From contig CALXUO010000030.1 of NCBI GenBank assembly GCA_944391695.1, positions 5,100 through 69,099 of the forward strand: DNA of 64,000 bases, given 5' to 3'. The translations under genes and the position numbers were made by a program. This DNA is from an uncultured Alphaproteobacteria bacterium. GTDB taxonomy: Bacteria; Pseudomonadota; Alphaproteobacteria; RF32; CAG-239. Positions 15,999 through 58,296 of this stretch are shown here, one piece after another. The notes beneath the pieces were generated by a model. That model did no database searches, had not been told where the DNA came from, and worked only from the letters and a program-made list of their open reading frames with translations. Each line of letters opens with the position of its first letter. The stretch's first letter is position 1.

Positions 15999-16080
15999 TT
16001 TAATAAAATTATTTTATCTTGTCAATCAAAATAAAAAGCTTATCTTATAGTCATATGTAAATTTTTAAGGAGAAATGCGA

Positions 16081-21528: not shown

Positions 21529-21654
21529 ATTCCTTGTGGATAAAGTATTGTCGTAAGCTGATTGTATTTCCAATTTAAAAAAATATGCTTATAATGCTCT
21601 CTGAAGTCCGTTGATTTGGACTTTGGGGAATATTTGTTATGGGGAATTGACCAG

Positions 21655-31230: not shown

Positions 31231-32262
31231 TTATTTGAGGTTGATGCCTTTTTGTTTGCAGCGGTTGTTCCATTTTAGTTTGGCATAAACCTGCATATCG
31301 GTAATGGTGTCGGTTTCGTCGACAATTTCTTTGCCGATAATGGTCTCTATAATGTCTTCCAAGGTTATGATGCCAATCCAATTGCCAAGCTGATCAACAA
31401 CCAAAGCCATGTGGTTGTGGTCTTCCAACATTGCCGAAAGAACATCTTGAAGCCGTGCCTCGGGAGAAAATGAACGCATGTCGCGGGCAAATTTGTCAAC
31501 TTTGTCTTCTTCTTTGGCTTTGTAAGTGCTTGATTTGTGGATGTAGCCTTTGAATATTTGCTTTTTCTCATCAATAATCGGAAAACGAGAAAAAGGCGTT
31601 GATGATAAAAATTTGGCAAAATCTTTTATCTTGGTTCCTGGTTTTATGGTATGAACAACCGTGCGTGGCGTCATGACATCTTTTACATCAAGCTGGCGCA
31701 AGTTAATAGTATTTATGACGACACGATATTCAATATCGTCAACAACTTTGGCCGCTTGTCCCATTTTGGCCAGAGCTTTAATTTCTTCTTTAATATTTGA
31801 ACAGTCAGTATCAGTTGTAAACCATCTGGTAATTAACGCTGATAGCCAAATAAACGGTTTCATTACCCAAATAATGATATTAAGCGAGGGAACCATAATC
31901 GGTACCAGAGCTTTCCAATATTTGGCACCAATCGATTTGGGCAAAATCTCCGAAGTGGTGAGAATTAAAAATGTCATGATACCACTGGCCCAGCCAACAT
32001 ATGCCTGACCATAAATTTCTGCAACTTGAGCACCTACACCGGTCGCACCGACGGTGTGGGCAATGGTGTTTAGAGAAAGAATGGCGGCTAAAGGCTCATC
32101 AATGTGTTCTTTCATATATGATAATTTTTTAAAAAGTGCGGGATTTTTGTCTTCAAGTTGGGCAACATAGCTCGGAACAATCGATAAAAGTGCGGCTTCT
32201 AACACAGAACATATAAATGAAACCGCAATTGCCATAATGGCAAAAACCAATAAAATAAACAT
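31231..32262 (-). CDS. CNNM/HlyC-CorC family transporter (DUF21 plus CBS pair)
   Basis: Four N-terminal TM helices followed by tandem CBS domains. RBS AAGGA. Confidence 0.8.
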   Translation of the reverse strand: MFILLVFAIMAIAVSFICSVLEAALLSIVPSYVAQLEDKNPALFKKLSYMKEHIDEPLAAILSLNTIAHTVGATGVGAQVAEIYGQAYVGWASGIMTFLILTTSEILPKSIGAKYWKALVPIMVPSLNIIIWVMKPFIWLSALITRWFTTDTDCSNIKEEIKALAKMGQAAKVVDDIEYRVVINTINLRQLDVKDVMTPRTVVHTIKPGTKIKDFAKFLSSTPFSRFPIIDEKKQIFKGYIHKSSTYKAKEEDKVDKFARDMRSFSPEARLQDVLSAMLEDHNHMALVVDQLGNWIGIITLEDIIETIIGKEIVDETDTITDMQVYAKLKWNNRCKQKGINLK

Positions 32263-32431
32263 TTTTTCCTTATTTGTTGTTAACGACTATTTGTTAATAA
32301 CATCTTTTTTTATAAAAATAAAGTATAATTATAGTTTTATTTACTATTTTTGTGCGGGGAGGAGATGTTATTTGTCGTTGTGGCAATTATATAAAAACCA
32401 GAAAATTATAATATTGAAGCGAGAGAAGGGG

Positions 32432-33634
32432 ATGCGGACGCAAAATTTATCGACTAAAGTTTATAATATCGGACATAATTATAAGATGGTAAGGCCCGAA
32501 AAAAACAAATGTCTGTTGTTTTTTGAAGACGGAGACGACAAATTGTTGGCTTCAATCGAGGGATGCCAAAATATATTTAACCGGGTGATTTTGCCACCTT
32601 ATAAGCAAAGCCTTAATCAGGATGAAAAAAGATATTTGTTATCTTTTATCAGGCAAAATAATTTTTTTATTACGGCTGAGATGGCTGCTGATCTTCAAAT
32701 CTCGGTTATTAAGTATGCCGGCGGAGAAGAAGAATATTTGTCGGAAAATCAGTTGGTGAATAAAATTGCCGAAGGAATAGATTTTGCCAAAATTTATGTC
32801 GGAAAAATGAAAGTTCATACTCTGAAAATTCCATCTGAGGCCAAAGGAACATATTATAACTTTTATAATGCTGAAATAAAAAAACTCATTGTGGCGGAAA
32901 ATTGTGATCTTAATATTGATTTTAGAGATAACAATGTGGTCGAAACTATTGTTATGGGCGATAATTTCGCCGGAACAATAAATATGTCACGAACTGTTGT
33001 CGAAAATATCTCATTGGCTGATAATTGTCGTTGTAATTTGACTGTAAGCGATGCCAAAAAGTGCTTTAATTTGCGGCTTGGCGATTTCTACCATGGTAAT
33101 CTTATAATCAATAATTCGTGTTTGGCGGATATGAAAATAGGAGATTTTTCTTATGCCGATATAATACTCAATAACGATGTAGTAAAAAAAGAAATGGCTT
33201 TGGGTGATTATTTTAGAGGTAATCTTCATATAATCAACCAAAATGCTAACATTCTTGAAATAGGCAACAATTGCAAAGGATTGATTAAAATTGAGAATCC
33301 AAATCATAATATGAGCATAAGAAAAATTATAGTCGGTGATGATTTTGCCGGAGATATGATTATAGACGATGATCAAAATATCAGAATATTGGAGTTTGGT
33401 GCCAGAGCTGTGGGAAATTTTAGTGTTTTTGCCTGTAAACGCTTGTCTTTGATAAAGGCCGGAGCTGATAATATGCTTAATATAGAGAGCAAATGTTTTA
33501 TAAAAGATATTAAATCTTTTGAAAATATACGATATTATGTTTTTGATAATGATGAAAAAACAAATACTTGTATGCCTTTTTATAAAAAAGTATATTATAC
33601 TATTCGTAAAATGGTACATAATCTTTTTATTTAG
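32432..33634 (+). CDS. BspA-type leucine-rich-repeat (LRR_5-like) protein
   Basis: At least 8 tandem ~21-aa units of the form 'L..I.IGD.F.GN..I', for example 'IVMGDNFAGTI', 'LRLGDFYHGNL', 'IGDFSYADI', 'LGDYFRGNL', 'VGDDFAGDM'. Very AT-rich. ATG 32432 chosen; the upstream ORF extension overlaps the CNNM gene. Confidence 0.5.
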   Translation: MRTQNLSTKVYNIGHNYKMVRPEKNKCLLFFEDGDDKLLASIEGCQNIFNRVILPPYKQSLNQDEKRYLLSFIRQNNFFITAEMAADLQISVIKYAGGEEEYLSENQLVNKIAEGIDFAKIYVGKMKVHTLKIPSEAKGTYYNFYNAEIKKLIVAENCDLNIDFRDNNVVETIVMGDNFAGTINMSRTVVENISLADNCRCNLTVSDAKKCFNLRLGDFYHGNLIINNSCLADMKIGDFSYADIILNNDVVKKEMALGDYFRGNLHIINQNANILEIGNNCKGLIKIENPNHNMSIRKIIVGDDFAGDMIIDDDQNIRILEFGARAVGNFSVFACKRLSLIKAGADNMLNIESKCFIKDIKSFENIRYYVFDNDEKTNTCMPFYKKVYYTIRKMVHNLFI

Positions 33635-34191: not shown

Positions 34192-35955
34192 TTAGTCTGC
34201 GCCAATAGCCTTAAAGATGCATCCTGTTACCGGAACGCTGTTTTCGTTTCTTAAGATGATATCTTCTATTTGTATATCCTTAAAGCCGTTTTGCTCCAAC
34301 AACTGCTTAATATAAGATGGGTTGTGTTTAAGACGTCCGTTGGTTTGGAGTTGGCAAGGGGAGGAGATGTCTGATTTTTCAATGGAAAAAATTATGTTTT
34401 TGCCACGGCATAACCCTATTAATTTTTCGACAGATTGAACATAACCTAAAACATCGGCAGCTATAATCCAATCATAATCAGAGCGGTTTTTCAGAAAATC
34501 AAATAGGTCTGATTGAACCAATTCGGTGTAGATTTGTTTGTTTTTTGCCTGCTTGAGCATCTTTGATGACAGATCGACACCTATAAGTTGATTCCGATTA
34601 TTCTTAACAGCTTGGCCAACAAGCCCCGAGCCACATCCCAAATCCGCAATACGGCCTTTGATATCCCCTGCAATTCTTCTAATAGCCAACGGAGCTTGAT
34701 AGTCCAAATTTTGCATAACCAATTCGTAATTATCAGCAAAATTGTCAAACAACTTTTCAACAAAAATTTGATTATTTTCAATGTTTCCTCCTTCAAAAGC
34801 TGCATTAATGTGGTGGGCGAATTGATCATCAGGAAAATTATTTAACCAATTTTTTGCTATTTGCAGCGCAATCTTTTCGTCTTGTGAAAATAAAAGAATT
34901 AGGGTTTCGGATAAGTTTACGGAGGCGGCAACAAGCTCTTGGTCGCAACGAAGAGCATTGATAAATAAATCTGATGCTTGCTGATATTGGCCCAAATCTT
35001 TAAGCACAACTCCCAAATTGTTGCTGGTTTCGGCAGTATCGGGACGTAAAATCACGGCTTTCCTATATTCTTCCAAAGCCTCGGGCAGGCGTTTTTGGCG
35101 GTAGAGCATTTCGGCATAGTTGTTGTGCGGCTCAAACCGCTTGTCATCCAGCTCGATTAATCTGCGGTAACGTTGTTCGGCCTCGTTAAAAAGGTCTGAG
35201 CGGCTTAAAATGTCGGCCAGGCATAGTTTGGCTTCGTAATTGTCGGCATTTATTGCTTCGGCTTTGATAAAACATTTTTTTGCTTGTTCGGTTTGTTCCA
35301 GTTCCAAATATATTAAGCCCAATATATAATTTACGGCGTCTGAGTTTGGAGACAATTCGATAGCTTTTAGGGCATAGGTGAGGGCATTTTGATAGTGGCT
35401 TTGATTGTAGTTAAGCCAGGCCAGATCGTAAAAAACCAATACCTCTTTGGGATATTGCTCAGAAAGCTCTTTAAGTTTGGTTTCGGCAAAGGAAGGATTG
35501 TCTTGGCGATAGCTGTTGGCCAGATTTATGGCCGCGGTTGAATAATCGTGATCAAAGGACAGCGCTGTTTGCCAATATTGTCTTGCTTGGGGCAAACCGG
35601 CCAGGGTTTCGTAAATACAGGCAATTTCATTATAGGTTTCTTTGATTTGCGGCGCCAGATTAACAACCTGCATAAAATTGTTGAGGGCATCGGCATATTC
35701 GCCGTTGGCCTTGAGTGAAAATGCCAAATTAAAATAAAAAGAAGCTTCGTCTTTTTTTTGTCTGATGGCGGCTGAAAACCAAGAACATGCTTCTTGATGC
35801 AGCCCCTGAGCCTGAGCTGTTAATCCCAAGAGATTTAGGATATTGGGATTGTCAGGTGATGTTTGTAGAATTTGGCGTGCAAAAGCCTCGGCAGAGATAA
35901 AATCTCCGCAATCAAAGCTCTTGAGCGCTTGTCTAAATAGATCATCGTAAAACAT
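34192..35955 (-). CDS. TPR-repeat protein fused to a class I SAM-dependent methyltransferase
   Basis: About 400 aa of TPR repeats. C-terminal motif I 'IADLGCGSGLVG' and post-I 'IGVDLS'. Confidence 0.75.
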   Translation of the reverse strand: MFYDDLFRQALKSFDCGDFISAEAFARQILQTSPDNPNILNLLGLTAQAQGLHQEACSWFSAAIRQKKDEASFYFNLAFSLKANGEYADALNNFMQVVNLAPQIKETYNEIACIYETLAGLPQARQYWQTALSFDHDYSTAAINLANSYRQDNPSFAETKLKELSEQYPKEVLVFYDLAWLNYNQSHYQNALTYALKAIELSPNSDAVNYILGLIYLELEQTEQAKKCFIKAEAINADNYEAKLCLADILSRSDLFNEAEQRYRRLIELDDKRFEPHNNYAEMLYRQKRLPEALEEYRKAVILRPDTAETSNNLGVVLKDLGQYQQASDLFINALRCDQELVAASVNLSETLILLFSQDEKIALQIAKNWLNNFPDDQFAHHINAAFEGGNIENNQIFVEKLFDNFADNYELVMQNLDYQAPLAIRRIAGDIKGRIADLGCGSGLVGQAVKNNRNQLIGVDLSSKMLKQAKNKQIYTELVQSDLFDFLKNRSDYDWIIAADVLGYVQSVEKLIGLCRGKNIIFSIEKSDISSPCQLQTNGRLKHNPSYIKQLLEQNGFKDIQIEDIILRNENSVPVTGCIFKAIGAD

Positions 35956-36170: not shown

Positions 36171-36782
36171 ATGAAAAGCATTGTTTCTACAAAGAAAAAG
36201 AAAGAACGTCAATATGGCGTTATTTGGGGTGCGCCCAACGCTTCGGTTGCCAAGAGAGAATATGCTCCGGGACAACACGGCCAAAGAAGAAAAAAACCTA
36301 CCGATTATGGTGAGCAATTGGCCGCAAAGCAAAAATTGAAAACTTATTACGGCAATGTTTCGGAAAAACAATTCCATAAATATTATGTTGAGGCTATTCG
36401 TCGTTCGGGCGATGCGGCCGAAAACTTAATCGGTATTTTGGAATCTCGCTTGGATAATATCGTTTATAAAGCAAAATTTGTTCCGACTATCTTTGCGGCA
36501 CGTCAGTTCGTAAACCATGGTCATGTTTTGGTTAACGGCAAGAAGGTTAATATTCCTTCTTATATGTTGAAGGCCGGTGATGAGATTGAGGTTAGGGCAA
36601 AATCTAAGCAATTGCCTATTGTTATTGCTGCTTTGGAATCTGCGGCGCGTGATGTACCGGCTTATGTTGAGCTTGATGCCAAAAAGGCCGTTGCAAAATA
36701 CGCTTTTGTTCCTAAGCTTGATGACATTCCTTATGCATCGGTTATGCAGCCAAATATGGTTATCGAGTTCTACTCAAGATAG
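36171..36782 (+). CDS. rpsD: 30S ribosomal protein S4 (alphaproteobacterial long form)
   Basis: '[14 protein letters not shown]...[12 protein letters not shown]' and '[29 protein letters not shown]...MVIEFYSR'. Confidence 0.95.
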
Positions 36783-36804
36783 TAGGGATTGCCTGTTTAC
36801 TACA

Positions 36805-36846
36805 AAAATCCTCAGAAGTTGTGCAAACTCTGAGGATTTTTGTTTT
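36805..36846 (+). terminator. rho-independent terminator after rpsD
   Basis: 11-bp stem aaaatcctcag / ctgaggatttt, then TTTTTGTTTT. Confidence 0.65.
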
Positions 36847-36907
36847 AAATAGAATAAATATAAGATACACTCTGTCTATCTTTTGGTATTGTGATGTTAA
36901 CCCTAAT

Positions 36908-39652
36908 ATGAAAAGGACAGAATTTATGGATGATATTCATCTGGATGATCCGAGGAAATTTTCTGCCAAACAAATAAAAATAGAAATAGAAAACGCCTCT
37001 AAAAAAAGAAATATTTGGCAATATTTGGCTGATTTGCTGGTTAAAACTTTAATTTGCGCTACATTAGTAGCAATTGATTTTACCCTGTTTGCCAACGCCG
37101 GAAACTATAATATATTTGTCTCTAATACTGATTTTACTCCTGAAGTAGGACATATTTATATTGCTATATTTTTATGTAGTTTTGTTATAATGCTGATTGC
37201 TTCGTTTTGGCCAAAATTGGAAAATATGGTTTTGTCTTTGTGTTTTGCGCTTATGACAATTGCGTTGATTAATCAATTTGCCACGTTTGAAAAGCACTCG
37301 GGATTGCTCATAATTTTTAACGGAATTTTCAGCGATGGTATAAATGCAGTATTGTATGAGTATGCTTTCTTGATTATCGGTGTTATTGCATTTGTTGTTT
37401 TTTGGATAGGGATTAGTGCGCTTAAAAGATCTTTTCGGTTTTATTTTTTGTGTGGATTGTTGGCCGTTTGGGGATGGATATTAAGTGAGGCTTATTTTAA
37501 TACGTCATCACAATATTTTAGGACTGTTGCATCTTCGCCTACACTTCGGGGGGATGATAATGGAAAGTTGTTGATTGTTTTGTCTTTTAACAATCTGACC
37601 TCGGTTGATAATTTGTTGAGCTTGAGCAATGAAAAAACACAAAATGTTGAGATAAAAAAGAGTGCTAATAATTTGCTTGGTTTTTTTGATATCAACAATT
37701 TTGTTTTGTATCCTAATGCAACGGTGAATAATCCTTATGAGCCGTTTTTGAATTTGGTATCGCTTTATAATCCTGGGAATGAAACGGAGGCCTCTTCTCA
37801 TGTAATGTCATCTGCGGAAAGGCAAGATTATTTCGATTTTAGCGCTATACAAAAAGACAGGCTTTATATTAAGGATAGTTCTCTTTACAAAATGTTACAA
37901 AAAGAAGACTACCGGATTAATGTTTATCAGACCAGAGATATTGATACCTGCTATTTGGATAATAAGTTGGCGGCGGCCGTATGTCGAGAAAAAGTTAATA
38001 TGCCGATTGCGTTCAACGAGGATATTTTTACCTCTGTGGATAAAACAGTATTGTTGACAGCTCAATGGCTTAATTCTATAGGTCTGATGCAATCAATAAA
38101 CTCAGTATTAAAGGCGGCGGAATACATAATACCAGGCAATAGTTTGAAGCCTTTGGGGTTTGATATAGATAAACTTTATGTATTGAACTCCTTTAAGGTA
38201 TTTGATTTGATTGTTGAAAGTATTGATAAGCAAAGCGGTAATCAGGCGTATTTTGCAATTATTGATTTGCCGTCTGATATGTATGCTTATGATGAGTTTT
38301 GCCAACTTAAAAAAGTTGATGAATGGAAAAGTGAGGAAAGTGTTGCTTTTGCTAAGTCTTCTTTGGAAAGTAGGCGCGAAGCTTATGCAGATCAGGTTAA
38401 TTGTTTGGTTGGTAGTTTGGAGCGTTTTATGCAACAGCTTGATAAAATGGGGCAACTTGACAATGCTACAATAGTTATTGACGGTCTGAACAATCCGCAA
38501 AGTTTGCTAAAAGATGAAGACGATTATTTTAGGCGACAACAAAGTAAAAGTCAGGTGATGTTTGCTATAAAACCAGAAAACGCTCAAAAACCAGAGATTG
38601 ATTATAGCGTTTGTAGGGTTGATGATATTGTAAATTCATATTTAATTACTCATAAGCCATGCGAAGAGTTTGTCGGAATTAGAACAACCGAAAAGAATAT
38701 GAAGCAGATTCGTGATTTTATTGAAAAAAATAAGTATAAAGACGATGTTGTGGAGGTCGCATCTCAAAACTTTGAGGAATGGGTAAGTGCTTGGATGGCT
38801 CATAATCAGTATGAAAACTATGCTCAAAAGAAAAAATTTGAGTCATCGGAAGAACAAAATGTCGATGATAACCAAATTGTAGAACTTAAGGAGAATGCTG
38901 TAAGCGAAAAGGTTGTCGAAGATGTGCCGGAGCAAAAATTGCCAAGTATTAGTGTAGCGGCTCAAGAGATGGATGTTGCTGAGAACGACGAACAGAATGA
39001 TGAAGTTTTGGGATTGGAACAAGATGCCGTAAATGAAAATAATTCGAATCAAGATGTTTTTGAAAATTCGGAAACCAAAGAGGAAAATACGGTTGAGGTA
39101 ACTAAGCCGGAGATGGAAAAAACAGAAGATATCACTGCTACAGAGAATCCTTTGACTGATAATACAGAACCTGATGTGGATGTTGCTGATAATAATGTTT
39201 TGCCAGGAATTAATAATACAGAGCAAACTACCACAGATGCAAAATCTGATATTGATACGCTTGGCAAGGATAAAGAGACTATGACAGAAGAGGTTGTTGA
39301 AGATGCTGTAGTTTCGGAAGATGTTATTCCGGATACGGTTTTTGATGTTAATGAAGACAGCAACACTACCGAAGCGGCTATTGAAAAAGCCAAGCAAGCG
39401 CTTAAAGTAAAAAAAGAAAAGAAAAAATTGTCAGAACGTGAAATTCCTAAAAAGAAACTTGATACTTTGGTTAAGGATATTGATATCCTGACTAAAAATG
39501 AAGACTTTAGGCAGGTGTTGGAAGCTCCGGTTGCTGAGGGGCAAAATCTTTCACCGGAAGAGTTAAAAAAACAATATCATCAAAATATTAAGGAGGCCGC
39601 CGATAAAATCGAAAATAACGTTAATCTTGAGGTTAAAGTTATTGAAAATTAG
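36908..39652 (+). CDS. polytopic membrane protein with a large extracytoplasmic domain (distantly sulfatase/LtaS-EptA-like architecture) and a long acidic disordered C-terminal tail
   Basis: Five or six N-terminal TM helices. Middle domain of about 350 aa. The last ~270 aa are E/D/N/T-rich low complexity. The ORF-track start at 36821 lies inside the rpsD terminator, so the first plausible ATG is 36908. Confidence 0.55.
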   Translation: MKRTEFMDDIHLDDPRKFSAKQIKIEIENASKKRNIWQYLADLLVKTLICATLVAIDFTLFANAGNYNIFVSNTDFTPEVGHIYIAIFLCSFVIMLIASFWPKLENMVLSLCFALMTIALINQFATFEKHSGLLIIFNGIFSDGINAVLYEYAFLIIGVIAFVVFWIGISALKRSFRFYFLCGLLAVWGWILSEAYFNTSSQYFRTVASSPTLRGDDNGKLLIVLSFNNLTSVDNLLSLSNEKTQNVEIKKSANNLLGFFDINNFVLYPNATVNNPYEPFLNLVSLYNPGNETEASSHVMSSAERQDYFDFSAIQKDRLYIKDSSLYKMLQKEDYRINVYQTRDIDTCYLDNKLAAAVCREKVNMPIAFNEDIFTSVDKTVLLTAQWLNSIGLMQSINSVLKAAEYIIPGNSLKPLGFDIDKLYVLNSFKVFDLIVESIDKQSGNQAYFAIIDLPSDMYAYDEFCQLKKVDEWKSEESVAFAKSSLESRREAYADQVNCLVGSLERFMQQLDKMGQLDNATIVIDGLNNPQSLLKDEDDYFRRQQSKSQVMFAIKPENAQKPEIDYSVCRVDDIVNSYLITHKPCEEFVGIRTTEKNMKQIRDFIEKNKYKDDVVEVASQNFEEWVSAWMAHNQYENYAQKKKFESSEEQNVDDNQIVELKENAVSEKVVEDVPEQKLPSISVAAQEMDVAENDEQNDEVLGLEQDAVNENNSNQDVFENSETKEENTVEVTKPEMEKTEDITATENPLTDNTEPDVDVADNNVLPGINNTEQTTTDAKSDIDTLGKDKETMTEEVVEDAVVSEDVIPDTVFDVNEDSNTTEAAIEKAKQALKVKKEKKKLSEREIPKKKLDTLVKDIDILTKNEDFRQVLEAPVAEGQNLSPEELKKQYHQNIKEAADKIENNVNLEVKVIEN

Positions 39653-39668
39653 TTCGGAGTATTGATTC

Positions 39669-40709
39669 TTGTCATTTAAAATAAAAAAAAATTATGCTTC
39701 CACAATAAGAAAAAAAATGAGGCTGTTTGCCAAAAACAAGCGGGCATACTATTCGCTGATTATTTTGAGCGTTTTGTTTGTCTTGAGTCTTTTGGCCGAA
39801 CTTATAGCCAATGATAAGCCTTTGGCGGTCAGGTATGATGGTGATTGGTATTTTCCGGCGTTTAAGACATATACGGAACAGACTTTCGGCGGGGATTTTC
39901 CGACCGAGGCCGATTACAAGGATCCGTTGATTGTTAAAAACATCAAAGAAAACGGCAATATGTGGTTTACGTTGATACCATATGCTTTTAATACGGTTGA
40001 TTATCATTTGGACGGGCCAACTCCTTCGGCGCCGGATAGAAATCACTGGCTGGGAACAGATGATGAGGGCAGGGATATTTTGGCGCGTATTTTATACGGT
40101 ATCAGATTGTCGGTGGTATTTGCTTTTGTATTAACATTTATTTCTTCGATTATAGGGATTATTGTGGGGGCGGTTCAAGGGTATTTCGGCGGTAAAACGG
40201 ATATTGTTATTCAGCGATTGTTGGAAATCTGGGATTCTTTGCCGCAGTTATTTATTTTGATTATTATTGCCAGTGTATTTGCTCCGACGTTTGGGGTATT
40301 GTTATTGATTATGCTGTTTTTTAGTTGGACATCACTGGTCGGGGTGGTAAGGGCTGAATTTTTAAGAACGCGCAATTTTGAGTTTGTTAAGGCAGCAAAA
40401 GCTCTTGGAGTGAGCGATATTCGCATTATGTTTCGTCATATTTTACCTAATGCCTTGGTGGCATCTATAACATTTATTCCTTTTATTTTATCAGAATCTA
40501 TTGTGGCATTGACTGCGCTTGACTTTTTGGGGCTTGGGCTATCACACGAGTATCCATCTTTGGGCGATTTGGTAAGACAGGGCAAAGATAATTTGCAGGC
40601 GCCTTGGATCGGTATATCTATATTTGTGGTTTTGTCGTCTTTGCTGACAATGCTTATATTCATCGGCGAGGGAATAAGAGATGTATTTGACACCAGGAGA
40701 ACCCGCTGA
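39669..40709 (+). CDS. yejE: ABC transporter permease, YejE-like (peptide/microcin C importer family)
   Basis: OppC_N-like N-terminus plus BPD_transp_1 core. Confidence 0.8.
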   Translation: MSFKIKKNYASTIRKKMRLFAKNKRAYYSLIILSVLFVLSLLAELIANDKPLAVRYDGDWYFPAFKTYTEQTFGGDFPTEADYKDPLIVKNIKENGNMWFTLIPYAFNTVDYHLDGPTPSAPDRNHWLGTDDEGRDILARILYGIRLSVVFAFVLTFISSIIGIIVGAVQGYFGGKTDIVIQRLLEIWDSLPQLFILIIIASVFAPTFGVLLLIMLFFSWTSLVGVVRAEFLRTRNFEFVKAAKALGVSDIRIMFRHILPNALVASITFIPFILSESIVALTALDFLGLGLSHEYPSLGDLVRQGKDNLQAPWIGISIFVVLSSLLTMLIFIGEGIRDVFDTRRTR

Positions 40710-42316
40710 TGAGTGATTTGTTGGAAGTTAAAAACTTTAGCGTCGGATTTAGGAAAGATGACGGATATTGTTATAAGGTGGTAAAAGATATTTCGTTTAG
40801 TTTGAAAAAAGGCGAGGTTTTGGGGATCGTTGGCGAATCAGGCTCAGGAAAATCAATAACCGCGTTATCGATTTTGGGGCTTTTGCCTTATCCCAAAGCG
40901 TTTCATGGCAAGGGAAGCTCCATAAAATTTGAAGGAGTTGAGCTGCTTGATAACCCCAATATAAGGAACTATCGCGGCGGCAAAGTCGGGTTTGTGTTTC
41001 AGGAGCCGATGTCATCACTTAATCCCTTACATAAAGTTGGCAAACAAATTGTTGAAACTATTATTTTGCATCAGAAATTATCTGCAAAACGTGCTAAAGC
41101 AAAAACTATAAGATTATTAAAATTAACCGGCATTCAAAATCCAAAAGCCAAATTTGAGGCCTATCCGCATGAACTTTCGGGCGGGCAGCGGCAACGCGTT
41201 ATGATTGCTATGGCTATTGCCAATAATCCGGATATTTTGATTGCTGATGAACCAACAACAGCATTGGATGTTACGATTGCGGCACAAATAATCGATTTGC
41301 TTTTAAAATTAAAAAAAGAGCTAAATATGGCTGTTATATTTATCAGCCATGATTTGAACGTTATTCGCAAGATTGCTGATCGGGTTTTGGTGATGAAAAG
41401 CGGCAGGATTATTGAGCAGGGCAAATGCGAAGATATATTTAATCATCCTAAAGAAAGGTATACCAAATCGCTGATTTATGCCTCTAATGTGTCAAAAGAA
41501 CCCAATAACAATCAAAACGATTTTGTATTGCAGGCTCATCGTTTGGTGGTTAAATATCCGCTAAAAAAAAGCTTTTGGGGCAAGGTTAGGGAATATCTTT
41601 ATGCCGTTAATAACATATCTGTCAAGCTAAAGGCAGGAAAAACATTAGGAATTGTGGGAGAATCAGGCTCGGGCAAAACCACATTGGGGATGGCAATAGC
41701 CGGATTAAATAAGTTTGAAGGTGATATATTTTATAAAGGGCAAGACATAAAACTGATTAAAAACAAAGAGTTGAGAAAAAAAATCCAGATTGTGTTTCAG
41801 GACCCTTATAACTCGCTTAACCCACGCATGACGGTTGGTGATATTGTGGGCGAGGGGCTGTTGGTTCATTTTAAAAATTTGAGCAAAAACGATAGGATAA
41901 ACAAAGTTGTTAATGTATTACATGAAGTTGGGCTAAAGGAAGATATCCTAAATAAATATCCGCATGAGTTTTCCGGCGGGCAGCGGCAGCGTATTGCCAT
42001 TGCCAGGGCTTTGGTGGTGGAACCGGAGGTGCTTATTTTGGACGAGCCGACATCGGCTTTGGATGTTACCATCGCGGCGCAAATCCTAAAATTATTACAG
42101 AAAATTCAAAAGGATAGGGGTTTAGCTTATCTTTTTATTACTCACGATATGAAAGCAATTAAGGCGATGGCAGATGATATCGCCGTGTTGAAAGATGGCA
42201 AAATCGTCGAGCTTAATGCTGCCGGCAAAATATTTAATCAGCCGCGGCATCCTTATACCAAAAATCTGATTTATTCGGCTAATTTGAAAAAACAATTTAT
42301 CTATAAAAGGAGATAG
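40709..42316 (+). CDS. yejF: ABC transporter ATP-binding protein with duplicated ATPase domains, YejF-like
   Basis: Two Walker A motifs ('GESGSGKS', 'GESGSGKTT') and two signature motifs ('LSGGQRQR', 'FSGGQRQR'). Confidence 0.85.
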   Translation: MSDLLEVKNFSVGFRKDDGYCYKVVKDISFSLKKGEVLGIVGESGSGKSITALSILGLLPYPKAFHGKGSSIKFEGVELLDNPNIRNYRGGKVGFVFQEPMSSLNPLHKVGKQIVETIILHQKLSAKRAKAKTIRLLKLTGIQNPKAKFEAYPHELSGGQRQRVMIAMAIANNPDILIADEPTTALDVTIAAQIIDLLLKLKKELNMAVIFISHDLNVIRKIADRVLVMKSGRIIEQGKCEDIFNHPKERYTKSLIYASNVSKEPNNNQNDFVLQAHRLVVKYPLKKSFWGKVREYLYAVNNISVKLKAGKTLGIVGESGSGKTTLGMAIAGLNKFEGDIFYKGQDIKLIKNKELRKKIQIVFQDPYNSLNPRMTVGDIVGEGLLVHFKNLSKNDRINKVVNVLHEVGLKEDILNKYPHEFSGGQRQRIAIARALVVEPEVLILDEPTSALDVTIAAQILKLLQKIQKDRGLAYLFITHDMKAIKAMADDIAVLKDGKIVELNAAGKIFNQPRHPYTKNLIYSANLKKQFIYKRR

Positions 42317-42318
42317 AG

Positions 42319-42663
42319 ATGAGCAAAACTAAAACTTATGTTTCGATTTTGATTGCGGCGATTGTGATAATTGCCATCGGTTTTATTATGAATATCAATA
42401 TGATAAAATCTTTTGTGATGATGTGTCTTAATTTCGCCGGCAACAATATTCAATCGGTTGCGGCGGCAGTATGCGCTTTTATCTTCTTGGGTAACAAGAA
42501 TTATTGGCTGATTATGCTGGGTTGTGCGATTGTTACGGCGTTGGTGGTGCAGGTTGTGGTTATGGGGCAGAGCGCAGGATTGCTTGTTTTGGCAGCCAGA
42601 ACAGTAACATTTATGGCGATTGTGTTCTTAATGAATTTTGTTAAGCTGCTGATTAACAAATAA
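42319..42663 (+). CDS. small integral membrane protein (about 4 TM), coupled to yejF
   Basis: Starts 3 nt after the yejF stop. Hydrophobic throughout. Confidence 0.5.
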   Translation: MSKTKTYVSILIAAIVIIAIGFIMNINMIKSFVMMCLNFAGNNIQSVAAAVCAFIFLGNKNYWLIMLGCAIVTALVVQVVVMGQSAGLLVLAARTVTFMAIVFLMNFVKLLINK

Positions 42664-42669
42664 AAAACC

Positions 42670-42698
42670 AAAGGGCTCTTGCGAAAAGAGCCCTTTTT
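42670..42698. terminator. bidirectional rho-independent terminator
   Basis: 10-bp stem aagggctctt / aagagccctt, loop gcgaa, then TTTTT. Confidence 0.75.
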
Positions 42699-42699
42699 G

Positions 42700-43482
42700 T
42701 TACTCCCAGGTTTGAACCAAGTTAAGCGACATCTGCAAATCCTCAGGATAACCGGTTGATGTTGCAAGCGAAAATATGACGTCAGTATCGTTTAACTTAT
42801 CATGAAGCAGGTCTTCATAATCAATATTTCCTTCGCCGATAACCACACAGCGCTTGAGCTCGGCATCGTAGTCTTTTAAGTGAAAATATTGGCATTTGTT
42901 GATGATATCTTGCAACTCTTGCGGCTTGAAATCATCGGCCATGGCGATGGTGTTACCCATATTTAGCAACGGAAAAATATTGGAAAATCCATACAATTCA
43001 AGTAGTTGATGCATGGAGCTGATGGTCGAGATGTTGCAAGCGGCATCGTTTTCCAGCAAAAGCGAAATACCGCGCTCCAAAGCCATTTGGCTATAGACAT
43101 CAAGTTTTTTACCCAAATCTTCTATCGATATTTTATTATCTTTCAAATAAGAATATATGACAATATTGGGAGCGCCGAAAATATCGGCCAAATCCATCAA
43201 TTTGGTAAAATATTCGGCCTCATCGGCGACTTTTTGCCCGCAAATGCTAAAATCAGCCTTGCTTTCAGACCATTTAAGAAAAGGCGAGGCGATGGACGAT
43301 ACCAAGATCCCTGACGACAATATCTTGCCCGCCATCTCAGAGGCCTCAGCAAGCGTAAAATCGCAGATATTGCGGCTGTTGATATTGCGCAACTCGATAT
43401 AGCGCAAATTGTTCTTTTTAGCAAAGCGAAGGCTATCTTCTAGGTTGGAAGAATATTCGTCATTGATAAAGCTTATTTCCAT
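42700..43482 (-). CDS. sugar phosphate isomerase/epimerase (xylose-isomerase-like TIM barrel)
   Basis: 'LLLEN' and 'FHLKD' motifs of the AP-endonuclease-2 / TIM-barrel family. Confidence 0.7.
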   Translation of the reverse strand: MEISFINDEYSSNLEDSLRFAKKNNLRYIELRNINSRNICDFTLAEASEMAGKILSSGILVSSIASPFLKWSESKADFSICGQKVADEAEYFTKLMDLADIFGAPNIVIYSYLKDNKISIEDLGKKLDVYSQMALERGISLLLENDAACNISTISSMHQLLELYGFSNIFPLLNMGNTIAMADDFKPQELQDIINKCQYFHLKDYDAELKRCVVIGEGNIDYEDLLHDKLNDTDVIFSLATSTGYPEDLQMSLNLVQTWE

Positions 43483-43545
43483 AATGTGTTTCCTATATTA
43501 AAAGATGTGTTTATGGGGCATAAATAAAACCATAAATATCAAAAA

Positions 43546-44115
43546 TCAAGAGTTTTTTAGTTTGGCAAAGACTAATCTGTCATGAAATTTATTATCACTA
43601 AAGATTGCATCTTTATTGGCTCCTTCAAAGATATAGCCTGAGCGCTTGGCCACATTGGATGAGCGTATATTTTCTTGCTGAGTGGTGATAACCAGGCGGT
43701 GCAGACCTTGCAAAAAAGATGCTGTTTCAATCAATTTGACGGCCTGTGTCATATAGCCGAAACCATTATATTCCGGAGCCAGCCAATAGCCGATCTCGGC
43801 ACTGTGATTTTCGCAATCGACATTATGAATATCTATCGAGCCAACAGCTTTGCCGGTTGATTTTAGGACGATAGAGTAGGCAAAATCGGTGCCTTTGTGC
43901 CATTTGTCGGTAAACATATCGGTGGCGGAGTTGCAATCTTGCAGGGAATGAGTTTTATCAACCCAGGGCATATAAGTGCGTAAAAAGTTGCGGTTCTTAT
44001 CAGTTTCAGACCACATATCTTCGTCATATTTATGATTATTACGAGATGACAACAGAATGGTGTCATTTTCGATGATTTCTGGCATTACAAAGTTTTCGAG
44101 CATATAAAACCTCAT
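43546..44115 (-). CDS. GNAT N-acetyltransferase (RimJ/RimL-like)
   Basis: Acetyl-CoA binding region 'IGYWLAPEYNGFGYMTQAV'. Confidence 0.8.
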   Translation of the reverse strand: MRFYMLENFVMPEIIENDTILLSSRNNHKYDEDMWSETDKNRNFLRTYMPWVDKTHSLQDCNSATDMFTDKWHKGTDFAYSIVLKSTGKAVGSIDIHNVDCENHSAEIGYWLAPEYNGFGYMTQAVKLIETASFLQGLHRLVITTQQENIRSSNVAKRSGYIFEGANKDAIFSDNKFHDRLVFAKLKNS

Positions 44116-44305
44116 TGTAAATGTGTTGTAATTTTTGTCAAGTATATAACATCAGTTTGATTTTGCAACATTATTTTGCTCTGTTTTTTGAGGGAGCTTT
44201 TTTTATCAGGGGACATCTTTTATTCATAAATATATTGTCGCATAATATATATTATGTATACAAAAACATATTAAAAAAGAGGGATGATGTGAAATAGCCC
44301 CAGAT

Positions 44306-44557
44306 TTATACCAATCTGAGCTTACCTAACAGTGGCAAATATATTTGCTCGGCTTTTGATATTAGCTCTTGCGGCGATAATTCGGTGATATCTTTCTTTA
44401 TTTGCTGCATTTTTATAATGCAATCTTCTTTTGTCGCTGCGTCTTGCAACAATCTGATTGAATACTCGCGATATAATAACAGCAAAACAAAATGCGCGTC
44501 TTCAATATTTTGCACTTTGTGCTTGTTTTGCATCAAATCCATCCGATTATTTGCCAT
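44306..44557 (-). CDS. hypothetical small protein (83 aa)
   Basis: Open frame overlapping the 3' end of the phosphatase gene by 25 nt. No motif. Could be spurious. Confidence 0.25.
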   Translation of the reverse strand: MANNRMDLMQNKHKVQNIEDAHFVLLLLYREYSIRLLQDAATKEDCIIKMQQIKKDITELSPQELISKAEQIYLPLLGKLRLV

Positions 44558-45114
44558 GTATCGTTTTCCTTTTTGAGGTGCAATATAGCCCCGTTTGAGA
44601 CATTTTGGCAGCTTTGTCCTAAGGCGATCATCGTTTGGGCCAACGCAATGCCATGCGATGATATGGCTATAACATCATAATCTTTTTGGCTTACCCAATA
44701 CTCAAGGCCGGCAAAAACACGCTCGCGCACTTGTTTTTTGGTCTCGCCACCCGGATAGCAGATGTTTTCATCGGGTACTACATTATGCAGTTTATCATAT
44801 ATATCTTTGTATTGGCTTAATATTTTGTCTTGAGGCCAGCCCTCGACACAGCCAACGTTAATCTCTATAAAGCGCTCGTCCTCAACTATATTGACATTTA
44901 GGCTTTGATTGGCAAGCTCGGCGGTTTGGCGGGCGCGTTTGAGAGGCGATGTAACAATAAGCTCTATGCCTTTGTCTTTAAGCTTTTGGCCGATACCAGC
45001 CGCCTGCTCTTGTCCAAGCTCTGTCAACACCGAATCATTGGTATGGCCTTGAGTACGCCCAATGAGGTTATAGGTGCTTTGTCCATGCCTAAATATATAA
45101 AAATCTTTTGTCAT
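44533..45114 (-). CDS. histidine phosphatase family protein (phosphoglycerate-mutase-like)
   Basis: 'RHGQSTYN' catalytic RHG motif. Confidence 0.8.
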   Translation of the reverse strand: MTKDFYIFRHGQSTYNLIGRTQGHTNDSVLTELGQEQAAGIGQKLKDKGIELIVTSPLKRARQTAELANQSLNVNIVEDERFIEINVGCVEGWPQDKILSQYKDIYDKLHNVVPDENICYPGGETKKQVRERVFAGLEYWVSQKDYDVIAISSHGIALAQTMIALGQSCQNVSNGAILHLKKENDTWQIIGWI

Positions 45115-46031
45115 TTCAAGGCTCTATTAAATTCTTTGGTTATGGTTTGGTTAAGCAGCTTGCTGACATGGCCAAAATCAGGCACTATTTCAAGGTGCGA
45201 ATTCTTTAGGCTGCAATGCACATCCCATGCACCTTTGAGAGGTGCTATCAAATCAAGCCTGTTGTGGACAATACATGCTTCTATCTCTTTGATTTTGTTT
45301 ATATTATCCAAAATATCATTGGCACTTAAAAAGAAATTGTTGGCGGAATAGTGCATATAAATCCGCTGGGAAGCCAATTCTTTTTCGGAAAGCTCGGTAA
45401 AAGTGCCAAATGCCGGGTTCATACTGCCGCAAACACGCTCAAACCAGCCATAATGATTGGCGGCGGTGAGCTGATCTTGTAGGTTATCGGACTGGATTAA
45501 TTTGTTGTAATAATCGATTGTTTTTCCAGCGGATTCTTCTTGCATATATGATACAAATTCAGGGTATAAGTACCCGCTTCCACCAAACTCCCACTGGTGG
45601 AAATCCTGGTTGGCCAAAAACACCTGCGAGAGCAACAATTTTTCTACTCTTTGCGGGTGTTTTTCAGCCCACAACAACGCTAAAGTCGATCCCCAAGAGG
45701 CTCCGCGCAAAATTACTTTGCCCTGGATATTTAGATGCTCCAATAAACGATCAACATCATCTAATAAATCTTGAGTGGTATTATGCTCTAATTTGCCCAA
45801 AGGCTGGGATTGTCCGCAACCGCGCTGATCAATCATAATCGCGCGATATTTGCGCAAATTAATGGTTTTGGCATATTTGGCTTTGCAACTGCCGCCGGGG
45901 CCGCCGTGAAAAAATATTACCGGCATACCTTTTTTGTTACCGAACTCGGCAAAATAAACCAAATGACCGTCTTTTTCCGGCAAAAAGCCACTATTAAAAG
46001 GTTTGGGAATAAACCAGTCTTGCCAAAACAT
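45111..46031 (-). CDS. pip: proline iminopeptidase (alpha/beta hydrolase, S33)
   Basis: 'FFHGGPG' and nucleophile elbow 'GASWGS'. Start refined to the ATG 3 nt after the queH stop, with an AGGAG RBS. Confidence 0.85.
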   Translation of the reverse strand: MFWQDWFIPKPFNSGFLPEKDGHLVYFAEFGNKKGMPVIFFHGGPGGSCKAKYAKTINLRKYRAIMIDQRGCGQSQPLGKLEHNTTQDLLDDVDRLLEHLNIQGKVILRGASWGSTLALLWAEKHPQRVEKLLLSQVFLANQDFHQWEFGGSGYLYPEFVSYMQEESAGKTIDYYNKLIQSDNLQDQLTAANHYGWFERVCGSMNPAFGTFTELSEKELASQRIYMHYSANNFFLSANDILDNINKIKEIEACIVHNRLDLIAPLKGAWDVHCSLKNSHLEIVPDFGHVSKLLNQTITKEFNRALK

Positions 46032-52939: not shown

Positions 52940-52981
52940 AGAGTCTTCGGTTTATGAAATAAACCTAAGGCTCTTTTTTTT
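52940..52981. terminator. bidirectional terminator (hypothetical gene / rnfA convergent)
   Basis: 14-bp stem with one mismatch, loop atgaaat, then TTTTTTTT. Confidence 0.6.
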
Positions 52982-53555
52982 AATATGAAATTCCGGCAAA
53001 GCCCATAAATGCCATCGACAACAAAGCGGCTGATATCAACACTATCGGCGTGCCTTTTAGGGCTTGCGGAATATCGGTACGCTCCAATCTCTCCCTGATG
53101 CCGGCAAAAATAACAATTGCCAAAGTAAAGCCCATGGCCGAGGCCAACGTATAGCAAATGCCTGCCAGAAGCGTATAGTTTTTTTGGATTGTCAAAATTG
53201 CAATACCCAAAACCGCACAATTGGTGGTGATAAGCGGTAAGAAAATACCCAAAGACTGATATAGGGCCGGTGATGTTTTCTTGATTACCAACTCAACCAT
53301 TTGCACTAGTGAGGCGATGACCAAAATAAAGGTTACCGTGGTCATAAATTTTAACTGATAGGGCTGCAAAAAAGTATAATAAATCAAAAAGGTTACAACT
53401 GTTGCCAAGGTCATGACAAACATTACGGCAAAACCCATGCCTATAGCGGTTGAAATACGCTTGGAAACCCCCAAAAACGGACATATTCCCAAAAACTGCG
53501 ACAGAATTATGTTGTTTACAAATATCGCGGTAATAAAAATCATTAGATAATCCAT
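52980..53555 (-). CDS. rnfA: Rnf complex subunit A
   Basis: 'FLGICPFLGVSK' membrane subunit. Confidence 0.9.
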   Translation of the reverse strand: MDYLMIFITAIFVNNIILSQFLGICPFLGVSKRISTAIGMGFAVMFVMTLATVVTFLIYYTFLQPYQLKFMTTVTFILVIASLVQMVELVIKKTSPALYQSLGIFLPLITTNCAVLGIAILTIQKNYTLLAGICYTLASAMGFTLAIVIFAGIRERLERTDIPQALKGTPIVLISAALLSMAFMGFAGISY

Positions 53556-53557
53556 GG

Positions 53558-54154
53558 CTATTTTACTCCCCGAAGTTTGTTAACAACAATGATGATACCG
53601 GCCAAGGCTAAAAACGCTCCGGGCGGCATAATAAACAAAAGCATCGGATGGGCATCCTCTCCGATAAATGACCACCCAAATACCGAACCATTGCCCAAAA
53701 TCTCTCTGATGGTGCCAAGAATTGTTAGAGCCATGGTAAAGCCTAACCCCATGCCAACACCATCTAAAAGCGATTGCCACACACTGTTCTTGGAGGCAAA
53801 AGCTTCGGCGCGGCCCAAAATTATGCAATTTACCACAATAAGCGGAATATATATGCCCAAAGCCTGATATAATGTCGGCAAATAGGCCTGCATCAGCATT
53901 TCTATCACTGTTACAAATGAGGCTATAATCACAATAAAGCTTGGTATTCTTATAATATCAGGAATTAAGTTCTTAACCACCGATATAAATACATTGGACA
54001 ATATCAAAACAAATGCTGTGGCCAAGCCCATGCCCAAGCCGTTTATGCCGGAGGTTGAAACACCCAGCGTCGGACACATGCCAAGCATCATGACAAATAT
54101 CGGATTTTCTCTTATAATGCCGCGAGTGAGGTTTGATATGCTCTCTTTATTCAT
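53558..54154 (-). CDS. rnfE: Rnf complex subunit E
   Basis: 'MMLGMCPTLGVSTS'. Start refined to the ATG preceded by GGAGG. Confidence 0.9.
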   Translation of the reverse strand: MNKESISNLTRGIIRENPIFVMMLGMCPTLGVSTSGINGLGMGLATAFVLILSNVFISVVKNLIPDIIRIPSFIVIIASFVTVIEMLMQAYLPTLYQALGIYIPLIVVNCIILGRAEAFASKNSVWQSLLDGVGMGLGFTMALTILGTIREILGNGSVFGWSFIGEDAHPMLLFIMPPGAFLALAGIIIVVNKLRGVK

Positions 54155-54737
54155 GGTTGCCTCCGGAATTAAAATTGCTAAATGCATCAAATGCCCGTTC
54201 AAGAGCTTTAAGGACGGCTCGAGAGCTTATGGTTGCTGCCGTTACGGCATCTACATCGCCACCGTCTTGCTTGACTTTTAATACCTGACGACGTGGATAA
54301 AATCCGTTGAATTGCTCCTTAAATTTCGGCTCATCAACTTTGGTCCCAAGCCCAGGTGTTTCGTGGCTTGAAATAACCTTGAAATTTTTAATGGAACCAT
54401 CAACATTAAATCCGGCCATAATTTCTATTCTGCCGCCAAAGCCGGTGTTGGTGTAAGCCTTGATGGCAACAGAGGTAAGCGCTCCATTTTGGCGGGCTGG
54501 ATACATCGTCAACTTATGTTTTTTGTTTTTGGTGGTGATTTTCATCTTCTCGGCAAACGGGTTGTTGTCAAACTCCCCTACGACCTCGGCTATGGCAGCC
54601 AATTCTTGATTATCTTTGGCTTGACGTATCGGTTCTAACGTAATGTCATGAACATAGCCTAAAATAAAAGCTGACAAGCAGGCGATGACAACTAAAGTTA
54701 CAATCGGTTTTATCGGACCTTGTTTTTTCTTTGACAT
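54147..54737 (-). CDS. rnfG: Rnf complex subunit G (FMN-binding)
   Basis: N-terminal TM helix and FMN_bind domain 'DAVTAATISSRAV'. TAATG-type overlap with rnfD. Confidence 0.85.
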   Translation of the reverse strand: MSKKKQGPIKPIVTLVVIACLSAFILGYVHDITLEPIRQAKDNQELAAIAEVVGEFDNNPFAEKMKITTKNKKHKLTMYPARQNGALTSVAIKAYTNTGFGGRIEIMAGFNVDGSIKNFKVISSHETPGLGTKVDEPKFKEQFNGFYPRRQVLKVKQDGGDVDAVTAATISSRAVLKALERAFDAFSNFNSGGNHE

Positions 54738-55726: not shown

Positions 55727-55728
55727 GG

Positions 55729-57874: not shown

Positions 57875-58292
57875 TTGCTTTGTGCCTTATAATCTTAAAT
57901 TTAATATCTGAGGTAATTTTACTTCTCATCAAGAATAAAACAAAATAATAAGGAATCAAGACAATTATGCCAGATATTCCGCTCTTAAAATCATCGAATC
58001 CTATAAACTGAAGTCCGATAATTGTTGCAACCAACAAAATAAGCGGTATGACATAGGCGTAAATGACTGCTTTTATTCCACCGGTTAGCGATGTTGCAAT
58101 ATCCACCTCCTCGCCTATTTTAAGGGTTGAGGCTTTGGGGTCTTTGATGACAATAATCTTTTCTTTGCTCTCGCTTAAACCGCAAACTCCCTTGGCCAAG
58201 CAAGAAGAACACGCACTTTGGCTTGTTATCTTCAACTCCACAACATCGCCTTTGATACTGATTATGCGAGCCTGATGTCTTATTTCCTCCAT
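57867..58292 (-). CDS. rseC: RseC/MucC-family (SoxR-reducing-system-type) small membrane protein
   Basis: N-terminal 'CSSCLAKGVCG' motif plus two C-terminal TM helices. Immediately upstream of rnfB. Start refined to the ATG with a GAGGA RBS. Confidence 0.65.
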   Translation of the reverse strand: MEEIRHQARIISIKGDVVELKITSQSACSSCLAKGVCGLSESKEKIIVIKDPKASTLKIGEEVDIATSLTGGIKAVIYAYVIPLILLVATIIGLQFIGFDDFKSGISGIIVLIPYYFVLFLMRSKITSDIKFKIIRHKANG

Positions 58293-58296
58293 AAGT

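Follow-up and report, generated by a model that had tools for sequence, protein, structure and literature searches.

A Clade-Specific Operon Joining yejE and yejF to a Gene for a Predicted Pseudo-Enzyme of the Alkaline Phosphatase Superfamily in Uncultured Gut and Rumen Alphaproteobacteria

Structure and Boundaries of the Operon

The genome of an uncultured alphaproteobacterium contains, in the 64,000-nucleotide stretch of DNA analyzed here (contig CALXUO010000030.1, positions 5,100 to 69,099, hereafter the window), the genes for a YejE-type permease and a YejF-type ATPase of an ATP-binding cassette (ABC) importer, preceded by a gene (gene 1) for a large membrane protein and followed by a gene (gene 4) for a small one. 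Gene 1, yejE and yejF form a clade-specific three-gene operon, to which a fourth, co-transcribed gene has been added in this lineage.

All four genes are located on the forward strand. Gene 1 (36926–39652) encodes a protein of 908 amino acids, or of 914 if the ATG at 36908 is used as the start; the residue numbers given throughout refer to the 914-residue version, in which the ATG at 36908 is residue 1. The longer version had been preferred in a first-pass annotation of the window, whereas the family alignment favours the ATG at 36926. This codon corresponds to M7, which is invariant in that alignment, is also the start adopted in the annotation of the metagenome-assembled genome (MAG) and has the sequence AAGGA 8 nucleotides upstream; on the sequence, it is most likely the true start. 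The stop codon of gene 1 is separated by 16 nucleotides from the TTG start codon of yejE (39669–40709), whose product is an ABC importer permease of the OppC type (346 amino acids), with a GGAG sequence lying 9 nucleotides before the TTG. The yejF gene (40709–42316), encoding a fused double ABC ATPase of 535 amino acids, overlaps yejE by one nucleotide. Just two nucleotides separate the yejF stop from the start of gene 4 (42319–42663), which has a GGAG Shine–Dalgarno sequence and encodes a protein of 114 amino acids with three to four transmembrane (TM) helices.

The first-pass annotation had described these open reading frames (ORFs) as a four-gene operon framed by strong hairpin terminators, and folding confirmed both hairpins. 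The upstream terminator (36802–36846, forward strand), whose hairpin occupies 36802–36843, follows rpsD (36171–36782), is provided with a U-rich run on its 3' side and represents the 5' boundary of the unit; its folding energy is −23 kcal/mol (z = −7.2), and none of 200 shuffled sequences folds equally well. A consensus terminator scan did not detect this hairpin, owing to its irregular loop. The downstream hairpin (42670–42696) is a bidirectional intrinsic terminator acting on both strands and common to a convergent gene (42700–43482). It has a stem of 11 base pairs, including five G-C pairs, and folding energies of −17.8 kcal/mol on the forward strand and −17.2 kcal/mol on the reverse one, with T-runs (U-runs in the transcripts) on either side. 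No promoter for the unit was found by a consensus scan of the region 36846–36926.

Conservation of the Gene 1-yejE-yejF Arrangement

The arrangement of these genes was compared in 78 loci, one genome per species, all belonging to MAGs of uncultured gut, rumen or faecal Alphaproteobacteria. The yejE gene is located directly 3' of gene 1 in all of the 75 assessable loci (including L077, where the two genes overlap), at a spacing ranging from −34 to +78 nucleotides, and yejF is the next gene after yejE in 70 loci out of 70. In most loci, the identity to the window proteins is 24–49% for gene 1 and 66–82% for YejE. The three genes stay together while their flanks turn over, and they are found in at least four genomic contexts. 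The rpsD gene lies directly upstream of the trio in 54 of 73 loci (the TPR-methyltransferase/rpsD context, TPR standing for tetratricopeptide repeat); in one subclade the upstream genes are gatA and gatB, with gene 1 starting two nucleotides past gatB; and the remaining loci have other genes upstream. The whole trio has been flipped as one piece between rpsD and gene 4 in L038 and L052. The comparison shows that yejEF were already tightly coupled to gene 1 in the ancestor of the gut/rumen clade.

The search for the same four-gene arrangement in related genomes, which the first-pass annotation had recommended, gave a divided answer: the first three genes recur together, whereas gene 4 is inconsistent. 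An iterated hidden Markov model search disclosed a gene 4 homologue in about 32 of the 78 loci, either adjacent and on the same strand, or 0.4–2.4 kb downstream on the opposite strand, or (in L038 and L052 only) upstream of gene 1, because in these two loci the trio has been inverted between fixed flanks. Close relatives of the window genome, such as L003, L006, L007 and L012–L019, had no homologue within 7 kb. The protein matches no Pfam or NCBIfam family, and its own family comprises 45 unnamed clusters of about 114 amino acids. One might think of a four-component machine having the gene 4 product as an obligate membrane subunit, since in the window the gene directly follows yejF, with its own Shine–Dalgarno sequence and within the terminator-bounded unit, and its homologues are often found near the trio; however, a gene missing from more than half of the loci and from close relatives, and often lying on the opposite strand, makes such a machine very improbable. 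On the basis of this limited occurrence and variable orientation, gene 4, which encodes a small membrane protein restricted to the clade, is a syntenic neighbour that is co-transcribed here, rather than the gene for a subunit.

YejE and YejF

The identification of the second and third genes as yejE and yejF, already proposed in the first-pass annotation, holds, both genes being intact and having PRK15021 and PRK15134, respectively, as their best NCBIfam families. YejE harbors the Pfam domains OppC_N and PF00528 (BPD_transp_1) and scores 428.7 bits against PRK15021 (microcin C permease), with 212 bits for the second family and an equivalog cut-off of 439. YejF contains two ABC_tran domains and an oligo_HPY domain, and scores 615 bits against PRK15134, whose equivalog cut-off is 834. 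Since both scores are below the strict equivalog cut-offs, the two proteins are referred to as YejE/F-type. YejE is 54.6% and YejF 45% identical to its E. coli counterpart, and inspection of the YejF translation revealed intact Walker A and B, signature and H-loop motifs in both halves. Across about 75 species, YejE is 56–95% and YejF 53–95% identical to the window proteins, and both are intact in every assessable locus. The periplasmic loop of YejE has a conservation of 0.75 within the clade, versus 0.82 in the membrane core, and is 48% identical to the loop of E. coli YejE.

One of the two explanations originally advanced for the locus was that of a decaying importer, in which yejEF would be the remnants, headed for loss, of a system from which yejAB had been deleted. 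The only observation in its favour is the local absence of yejA and yejB. The conservation of the trio across the clade, with yejE and yejF intact wherever the contig allows them to be followed, excludes this explanation; the intact ATPase motifs, the constrained YejE loop and the tight junctions between the genes also speak against it, so that it can be considered as effectively refuted.

Lack of yejA and yejB around the Operon

The Opp, Dpp and Yej systems are ABC importers of the PepT type, built of five components: a binding protein, a pair of permeases and a pair of ATPase domains. The unit described here shares with YejABEF, an importer of microcin C and antimicrobial peptides, the YejE- and YejF-type subunits, the one-nucleotide junction between their genes and the fused double ATPase. 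It differs from YejABEF in that neither yejA nor yejB is found in or near the operon in about 75 genomes, and in that the upstream slot is held by a membrane protein that is neither a substrate-binding protein (SBP) nor a permease. The absence of yejA and yejB from the window, reported in the first-pass annotation, was borne out by tblastn searches with E. coli YejA and YejB (queries taken from locus L080), which returned only a weak YejB match falling on yejE itself, and by a Pfam scan of the remaining large or exported ORFs of the window, which revealed no SBP_bac_5 and no second BPD_transp_1 domain. The same tblastn approach, extended to ±10 kb around each of the 78 loci, yielded neither YejA nor YejB, and no paper in the literature library searched describes a system made up of YejEF only.

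The main alternative to the explanation favoured below, only slightly less likely than it, is that a rearrangement in an ancestor split yejABEF at the border of yejB and yejE, moving yejEF behind the promoter of gene 1. If so, yejB and a yejA- or yepA-like gene would survive elsewhere in the genome and a YejB-YejE-YejF transporter would still be formed, while gene 1, having its own role in the envelope, would be merely co-transcribed. The lack of yejB and yejA around the 78 loci and in the whole window does not favour such a split operon, nor does the nearly universal adjacency of the two permease genes in PepT-type importers. The split would nevertheless account for the unremarkably canonical sequences of YejE (periplasmic loop included) and YejF, and the dependence of yejEF on the gene 1 promoter would keep the genes together even without a common function. 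Moreover, the gene for a Yej binding protein can lie at a distance from the operon, and that of YepA is an example (PMC9790009). In Agrobacterium, this alternative binding protein redirects YejBEF to muropeptides, and the resulting muropeptide importer of Rhizobiales provides a precedent for the exchange of the substrate-capturing partner (PMC9790009).

Topology and Predicted Structure of the Gene 1 Product

Hydropathy and the distribution of positive charges predict that the gene 1 product has a cytoplasmic N-terminus and five TM helices followed by about 440 extracytoplasmic residues without any further TM segment. The TM domain (37025–37492) comprises residues 40–58, 83–101, 104–122, 154–172 and 177–195, and the same helices are present in an AlphaFold2 (AF2) model built with a 40-sequence alignment; of the five to six helices originally counted, five are thus retained and a sixth is not. 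According to both hydropathy and the model, the cytoplasmic loops connecting the helices are only 2–5 residues long. The TM domain is followed by a periplasmic domain of the alkaline phosphatase/sulfatase fold (37505–38812, residues ~200–635), and the predicted local distance difference test score (pLDDT) is 85–96 over most of residues 40–635.

The C-terminal part had been described as an acidic tail of about 270 residues. A disordered acidic stretch does exist (38822–39370, residues ~639–821, pLDDT < 50), but it is succeeded by a helical module (39371–39649, AF2 helices at residues 820–900) carrying the conserved motif VLEAPVAxGQxLSPEELKKQYH; in the family alignment, this module is better conserved than the acidic stretch preceding it. 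Residues 641–860 include 61 Asp and Glu versus 25 Lys and Arg. Since no TM helix follows residue 195 in the predicted topology, the tail would be located in the periplasm. Six Cys residues are invariant across the periplasmic domain in the family alignment. The window also contains a gene (60108–61628, forward strand) for a DsbD-type thiol-disulfide transporter with DsbD_TM and thioredoxin-like domains, whose presence is consistent with a disulfide-rich periplasmic domain in gene 1; a further gene (62362–63882, reverse strand) encodes a 506-amino-acid protein with a phage-lysozyme domain.

A Foldseek comparison of the model with the PDB gave full-length PbgA/YejM (6xlp_A, E = 2e-8; 6v8q) and full-length MCR-1 as top matches, with LtaS and many sulfatases next. 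The alignment of the full-length protein with PbgA extends over ~620–637 columns, but its TM-score is only 0.2–0.3. When modelled alone (pLDDT 79.5), the TM domain gave no Foldseek match with E < 1, and no permease was found among the matches; hence, no homology between this domain and the TM domains of PbgA or EptA can be claimed.

At the sequence level, the window protein belongs to no Pfam or NCBIfam family; weak matches to PF00884 were detected in 9 of 40 homologues, and profile searches of the PDB sequences produced low-complexity noise only. The hhalign comparison of the family profile with E. coli LapC had a probability of 8% (E = 0.0043) and was limited to one local segment, corresponding to the helix-strand that, in active enzymes, precedes the Asp-His ligands ('TIVIDGLNN' in gene 1 versus 'TVVIITAGRG' in LapC); the comparison with E. 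coli EptA revealed no relation. The TM domain was also considered as a diverged YejB and, more generally, as a type I ABC permease. Both possibilities were rejected, the former on the basis of an hhalign probability of 0.1% against YejB, the latter because of the lack of a BPD_transp_1 match in Pfam and of a cytoplasmic EAA coupling loop or helix.

The closest structural analogue, PbgA/YejM/LapC, possesses five N-terminal TM helices and a periplasmic pseudo-hydrolase domain of the arylsulfatase/LtaS type (PMC13125744). Gene 1 has the same succession of five N-terminal TM helices and a large periplasmic domain, which, according to the model, would likewise adopt an arylsulfatase/LtaS-type fold devoid of a catalytic and metal site; both proteins lack the Asp-His pair on a late β-strand. 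The two differ in that no sequence homology is detectable with the searches listed above, and in that gene 1 has the six invariant Cys, the acidic tail and an operon shared with an ABC permease and an ATPase. Furthermore, PbgA has been described as a lipopolysaccharide sensor from Enterobacteriaceae, not from Alphaproteobacteria, and no lapB or lpxC context is apparent in the window.

This likeness raises the possibility that gene 1 is an independent PbgA/LapC-like envelope sensor or tether, which would be co-regulated, without forming a complex, with an importer made up of a YejE homodimer and YejF and using an orphan binding protein; envelope homeostasis or the recycling of peptidoglycan or peptides would be the common theme. 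Besides PbgA being the best structural match with the same architecture (PMC13125744), the long, probably periplasm-spanning tails of the stand-alone relatives of gene 1, some of them with TolA-like repeats (see below), would fit such a role. However, the lack of sequence homology to PbgA, the failure of the TM domain taken alone to match that of PbgA and the many yejEF-linked orthologues without a tail render it rather unlikely.

Active-Site Residues and the Wider Gene 1 Family

EptA/MCR-1 and LtaS share with gene 1 the five TM helices and a periplasmic domain of the alkaline phosphatase superfamily, as indicated by the Foldseek matches. The columns corresponding to the active site of these enzymes were mapped in gene 1 on the basis of the AF2 secondary structure and of the segment aligned with LapC. 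In place of metal ligands, nucleophile and Asp-His pair, gene 1 has LSFNN/MLPNL, Asn282 and IQG-x-S/N. At variance with EptA/MCR-1, LtaS and OpgB, gene 1 and its 74 yejEF-linked orthologues possess no acidic metal ligand at the end of β1, no Ser/Thr nucleophile and no Asp-His pair; in particular, none of the 74 has DH at the β1 end or HGD on the late strand, and 72 of them have Asn at position 282. Most of the stand-alone relatives, i.e., family members not linked to yejEF, retain LLxDHxGY at the β1 end, LPHYPY and IHGD(K/R)G, the LPH of these proteins being replaced by LPS or IPS in the linked ones; Ser is found at position 282 in 9 of 16. On the other hand, Q123, F124, K362, P366 and K468 are invariant in the linked clade only.

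Since all the metal-ligand and nucleophile positions have been lost, the gene 1 product is, on the predicted fold, an inner-membrane pseudo-enzyme of the alkaline phosphatase superfamily and, judging from its residues, not an active enzyme of the EptA/LtaS type. This agrees with the first-pass annotation, which had noted a domain faintly resembling LtaS, EptA and OpgB in which the usual catalytic Ser/Thr context is not conserved. The alignments show that the candidate residues for metal binding and for the nucleophile were lost from gene 1 in the ancestor of the gut/rumen clade and that new invariant ones were acquired there, which the split of an ancestral yejABEF operon would leave unexplained. 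The stand-alone relatives that keep the Asp, His and Ser candidates may be active enzymes of the general EptA/LtaS kind.

Close homologues of gene 1 number about 50, and a profile search including the acidic tail retrieved only these same proteins, the tail swamping the word index. An exhaustive search with a tail-free profile yielded 884 representative clusters at E ≤ 1e-3, 133 of which at E ≤ 1e-30, including a distant group of proteins of 1,070–1,490 amino acids. The possibility, contemplated in the first-pass annotation, that the large protein might belong to a common and well-characterized family with unrelated neighbours is therefore half right, in that the family is widespread and has unrelated neighbours in distant genomes but is uncharacterized.

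The genomic context of the distant members is variable. In P0213, P0198 and P0207, a divergent TPR-methyltransferase gene is followed by the gene-1-like gene and then by a glutaredoxin gene; in P0193, the gene-1-like gene is placed between rpsD and a convergent gene; P0208 has a divergent glutaredoxin gene upstream, and P0231 and P0223 have other contexts. No yejE or yejF was found within the recovered 8–10 kb flanks of these seven members; the contig of an eighth one, P0214, contains the gene alone, without flanks. The gene 1 family thus occurs without yejEF in other Alphaproteobacteria, where it has a YejEF-independent function, as would also be expected if yejEF had simply been placed behind gene 1 by a rearrangement.

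Some recurrent neighbours of the family deserve mention. A gene for a protein with TPR and S-adenosylmethionine-dependent methyltransferase domains (587 amino acids; 34192–35955, reverse strand) is located upstream of rpsD in the window, and the TPR-methyltransferase is the divergent upstream neighbour of distant gene-1-like genes as well (L083 274–2091, L084 5335–7146 and L087 6075–7919). This synteny is deeper than the linkage to yejEF and may hint at what the family originally did. The stand-alone members also recurrently have a small glutaredoxin gene beside them. Lastly, a pair of ABC_transp_aux and DUF4340 genes, the auxiliary pair of an uncharacterized ABC system, occupies the left edge of the window (14–1971, forward strand) and recurs near a distant gene-1-like gene (L088 16757–18277), which is probably a coincidence.

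The tails of the distant members are 430–850 amino acids long, acidic and rich in Pro, Ala, Glu and Thr. That of P0198 (L084 7244–10819) has TolA-like AEAKA repeats, with long 'AEAKALAEKQAAEKAAAE' stretches resembling TolA domain II, which suggests that the ancestral tails span the periplasm; the stand-alone P0207 ends with a motif of the L[ST]P[EA][EQ]L type, resembling the C-terminal motif of gene 1. In the linked clade, the length of the tail varies from 0 to 380 amino acids, many orthologues being tailless. Since the tails of the stand-alone relatives are longer and those of the linked proteins may be missing, the tail is to be considered ancestral and dispensable; the idea that it might act as a system-specific bait for cationic peptides was rejected, as a defining feature, for the same reasons. 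Overall, the comparison shows that gene 1 derives from an old inner-membrane protein of Alphaproteobacteria, which had five TM helices and, in the periplasm, a domain of the alkaline phosphatase fold and a long acidic tail.

A Possible Role for Gene 1 in a YejEF-Based Importer

The explanation that we tentatively favour, without considering it probable, is that gene 1 has been recruited as a tethered periplasmic partner of the YejE/YejF translocator. The dead-enzyme domain would act as a membrane-tethered periplasmic receptor or adaptor and substitute functionally for YejA, binding a periplasmic ligand in the region of the former active site and handing it to a translocator based on YejE, probably a homodimer, and powered by YejF. 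We infer a physical association of the gene 1 product with YejE and YejF. The known substrates of Yej systems suggest that the cargo might be a peptide, a muropeptide or a cationic peptide. It has to be underlined that the TM domain of gene 1 is unlikely to take the place of YejB, because of its very short cytoplasmic loops, the lack of a coupling helix and the lack of a permease fold. The more demanding version, in which the dead alkaline-phosphatase-fold protein replaces both the binding protein and the second permease, a gene 1-YejE(2)-YejF complex capturing and importing a periplasmic peptide or an envelope-derived ligand, appears unlikely.

Several observations support the recruitment of gene 1 as a partner of YejEF: the adjacency of the three genes is invariable and persists through the changes in their flanks; neither yejA nor yejB lies close to them in the loci compared or in the window; gene 1 diverges while YejE stays conserved in most loci; the active site has disappeared in step with the linkage to yejEF, and new invariant residues are found in this clade only; and the constrained periplasmic loop of YejE points to a working transporter. 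The cooperation of the Yej core with YepA in Agrobacterium offers a precedent (PMC9790009). The original suggestion that YejEF had become part of a new machine therefore remains plausible, though unproven, with the difference that the cohesive unit consists of three genes rather than four and that the acidic tail is not specific to the system.

Other observations weigh against this recruitment. YejE and YejF appear fully canonical in their sequences, whereas a change of partner in the periplasm should have left a trace in them, and none is visible. Since yejEF have no obvious promoter of their own, their reliance on that of gene 1 could by itself preserve the adjacency. The YejEF-independent function of the family in other Alphaproteobacteria must also be accounted for, and in P0193 and P0208, which are closer stand-alone relatives without linkage to yejEF, the candidate site is already partly lost. 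Finally, the alkaline phosphatase fold is not, to our knowledge, a fold of ABC substrate-binding proteins.

In the OpuA and GlnPQ systems of Gram-positive bacteria, a receptor with a classical SBP fold is fused to the permease. The concept of a substrate receptor kept at the membrane beside the translocator is alike in the two cases; unlike in OpuA and GlnPQ, the receptor would here be, if the analogy holds, a catalytically dead domain of the alkaline phosphatase fold, held by a separate anchor of five TM helices. Should gene 1 indeed replace both the binding protein and the second permease, it would represent the conversion of an enzyme into a receptor feeding an ABC transporter, and a new architecture of ABC importers. 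More generally, either the Yej core is able to operate with a partner outside the canonical set, or the locus is a clean and long-lived case of a split transporter operon. In addition, the analysis defines a large uncharacterized alphaproteobacterial family (the 884 clusters mentioned above), made up of envelope proteins that resemble PbgA and EptA and have long acidic tails in the periplasm; within this family, the passage from a probable enzyme to a pseudo-enzyme can be dated. Yej systems control how sensitive bacteria are to host antimicrobial peptides and peptide antibiotics, as well as peptidoglycan recycling; this variant may therefore matter for how abundant uncultured gut bacteria cope with their host.

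Other Features of the Window

The GC skew is strongly positive (0.1–0.36) from position 1 to about 44 kb and then falls to around zero or to slightly negative values, and the orientation of the genes changes from mostly forward to mostly reverse at the bidirectional terminator (42670–42696) that closes the operon. This switch (~42000–46000) would fit either converging replication forks, i.e., a terminus region, or a junction produced by the assembly or by a rearrangement.

An ORF of 465 amino acids (32237–33634, forward strand) contains many degenerate 'GD.F.G.L.I.N' repeats and has no Pfam match; it may encode a β-helix-like repeat protein. Its 5' end overlaps a CNNM/CBS gene located on the opposite strand, so that translation probably begins further downstream. 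At 21616–25830 (forward strand), there is a very large ORF of 1,404 amino acids.

A homologue of the large subunit of [FeFe]-hydrogenase was identified with Pfam at 11429–12880, and the reading of the translations alone pointed to apparent AdhE-, rubrerythrin-, flavodiiron- and Rnf-like genes (5286–7910, 15012–15551, 16075–17259 and 52980–58307). These genes would represent an anaerobic fermentative set in an alphaproteobacterium, consistent with a gut or rumen habitat.

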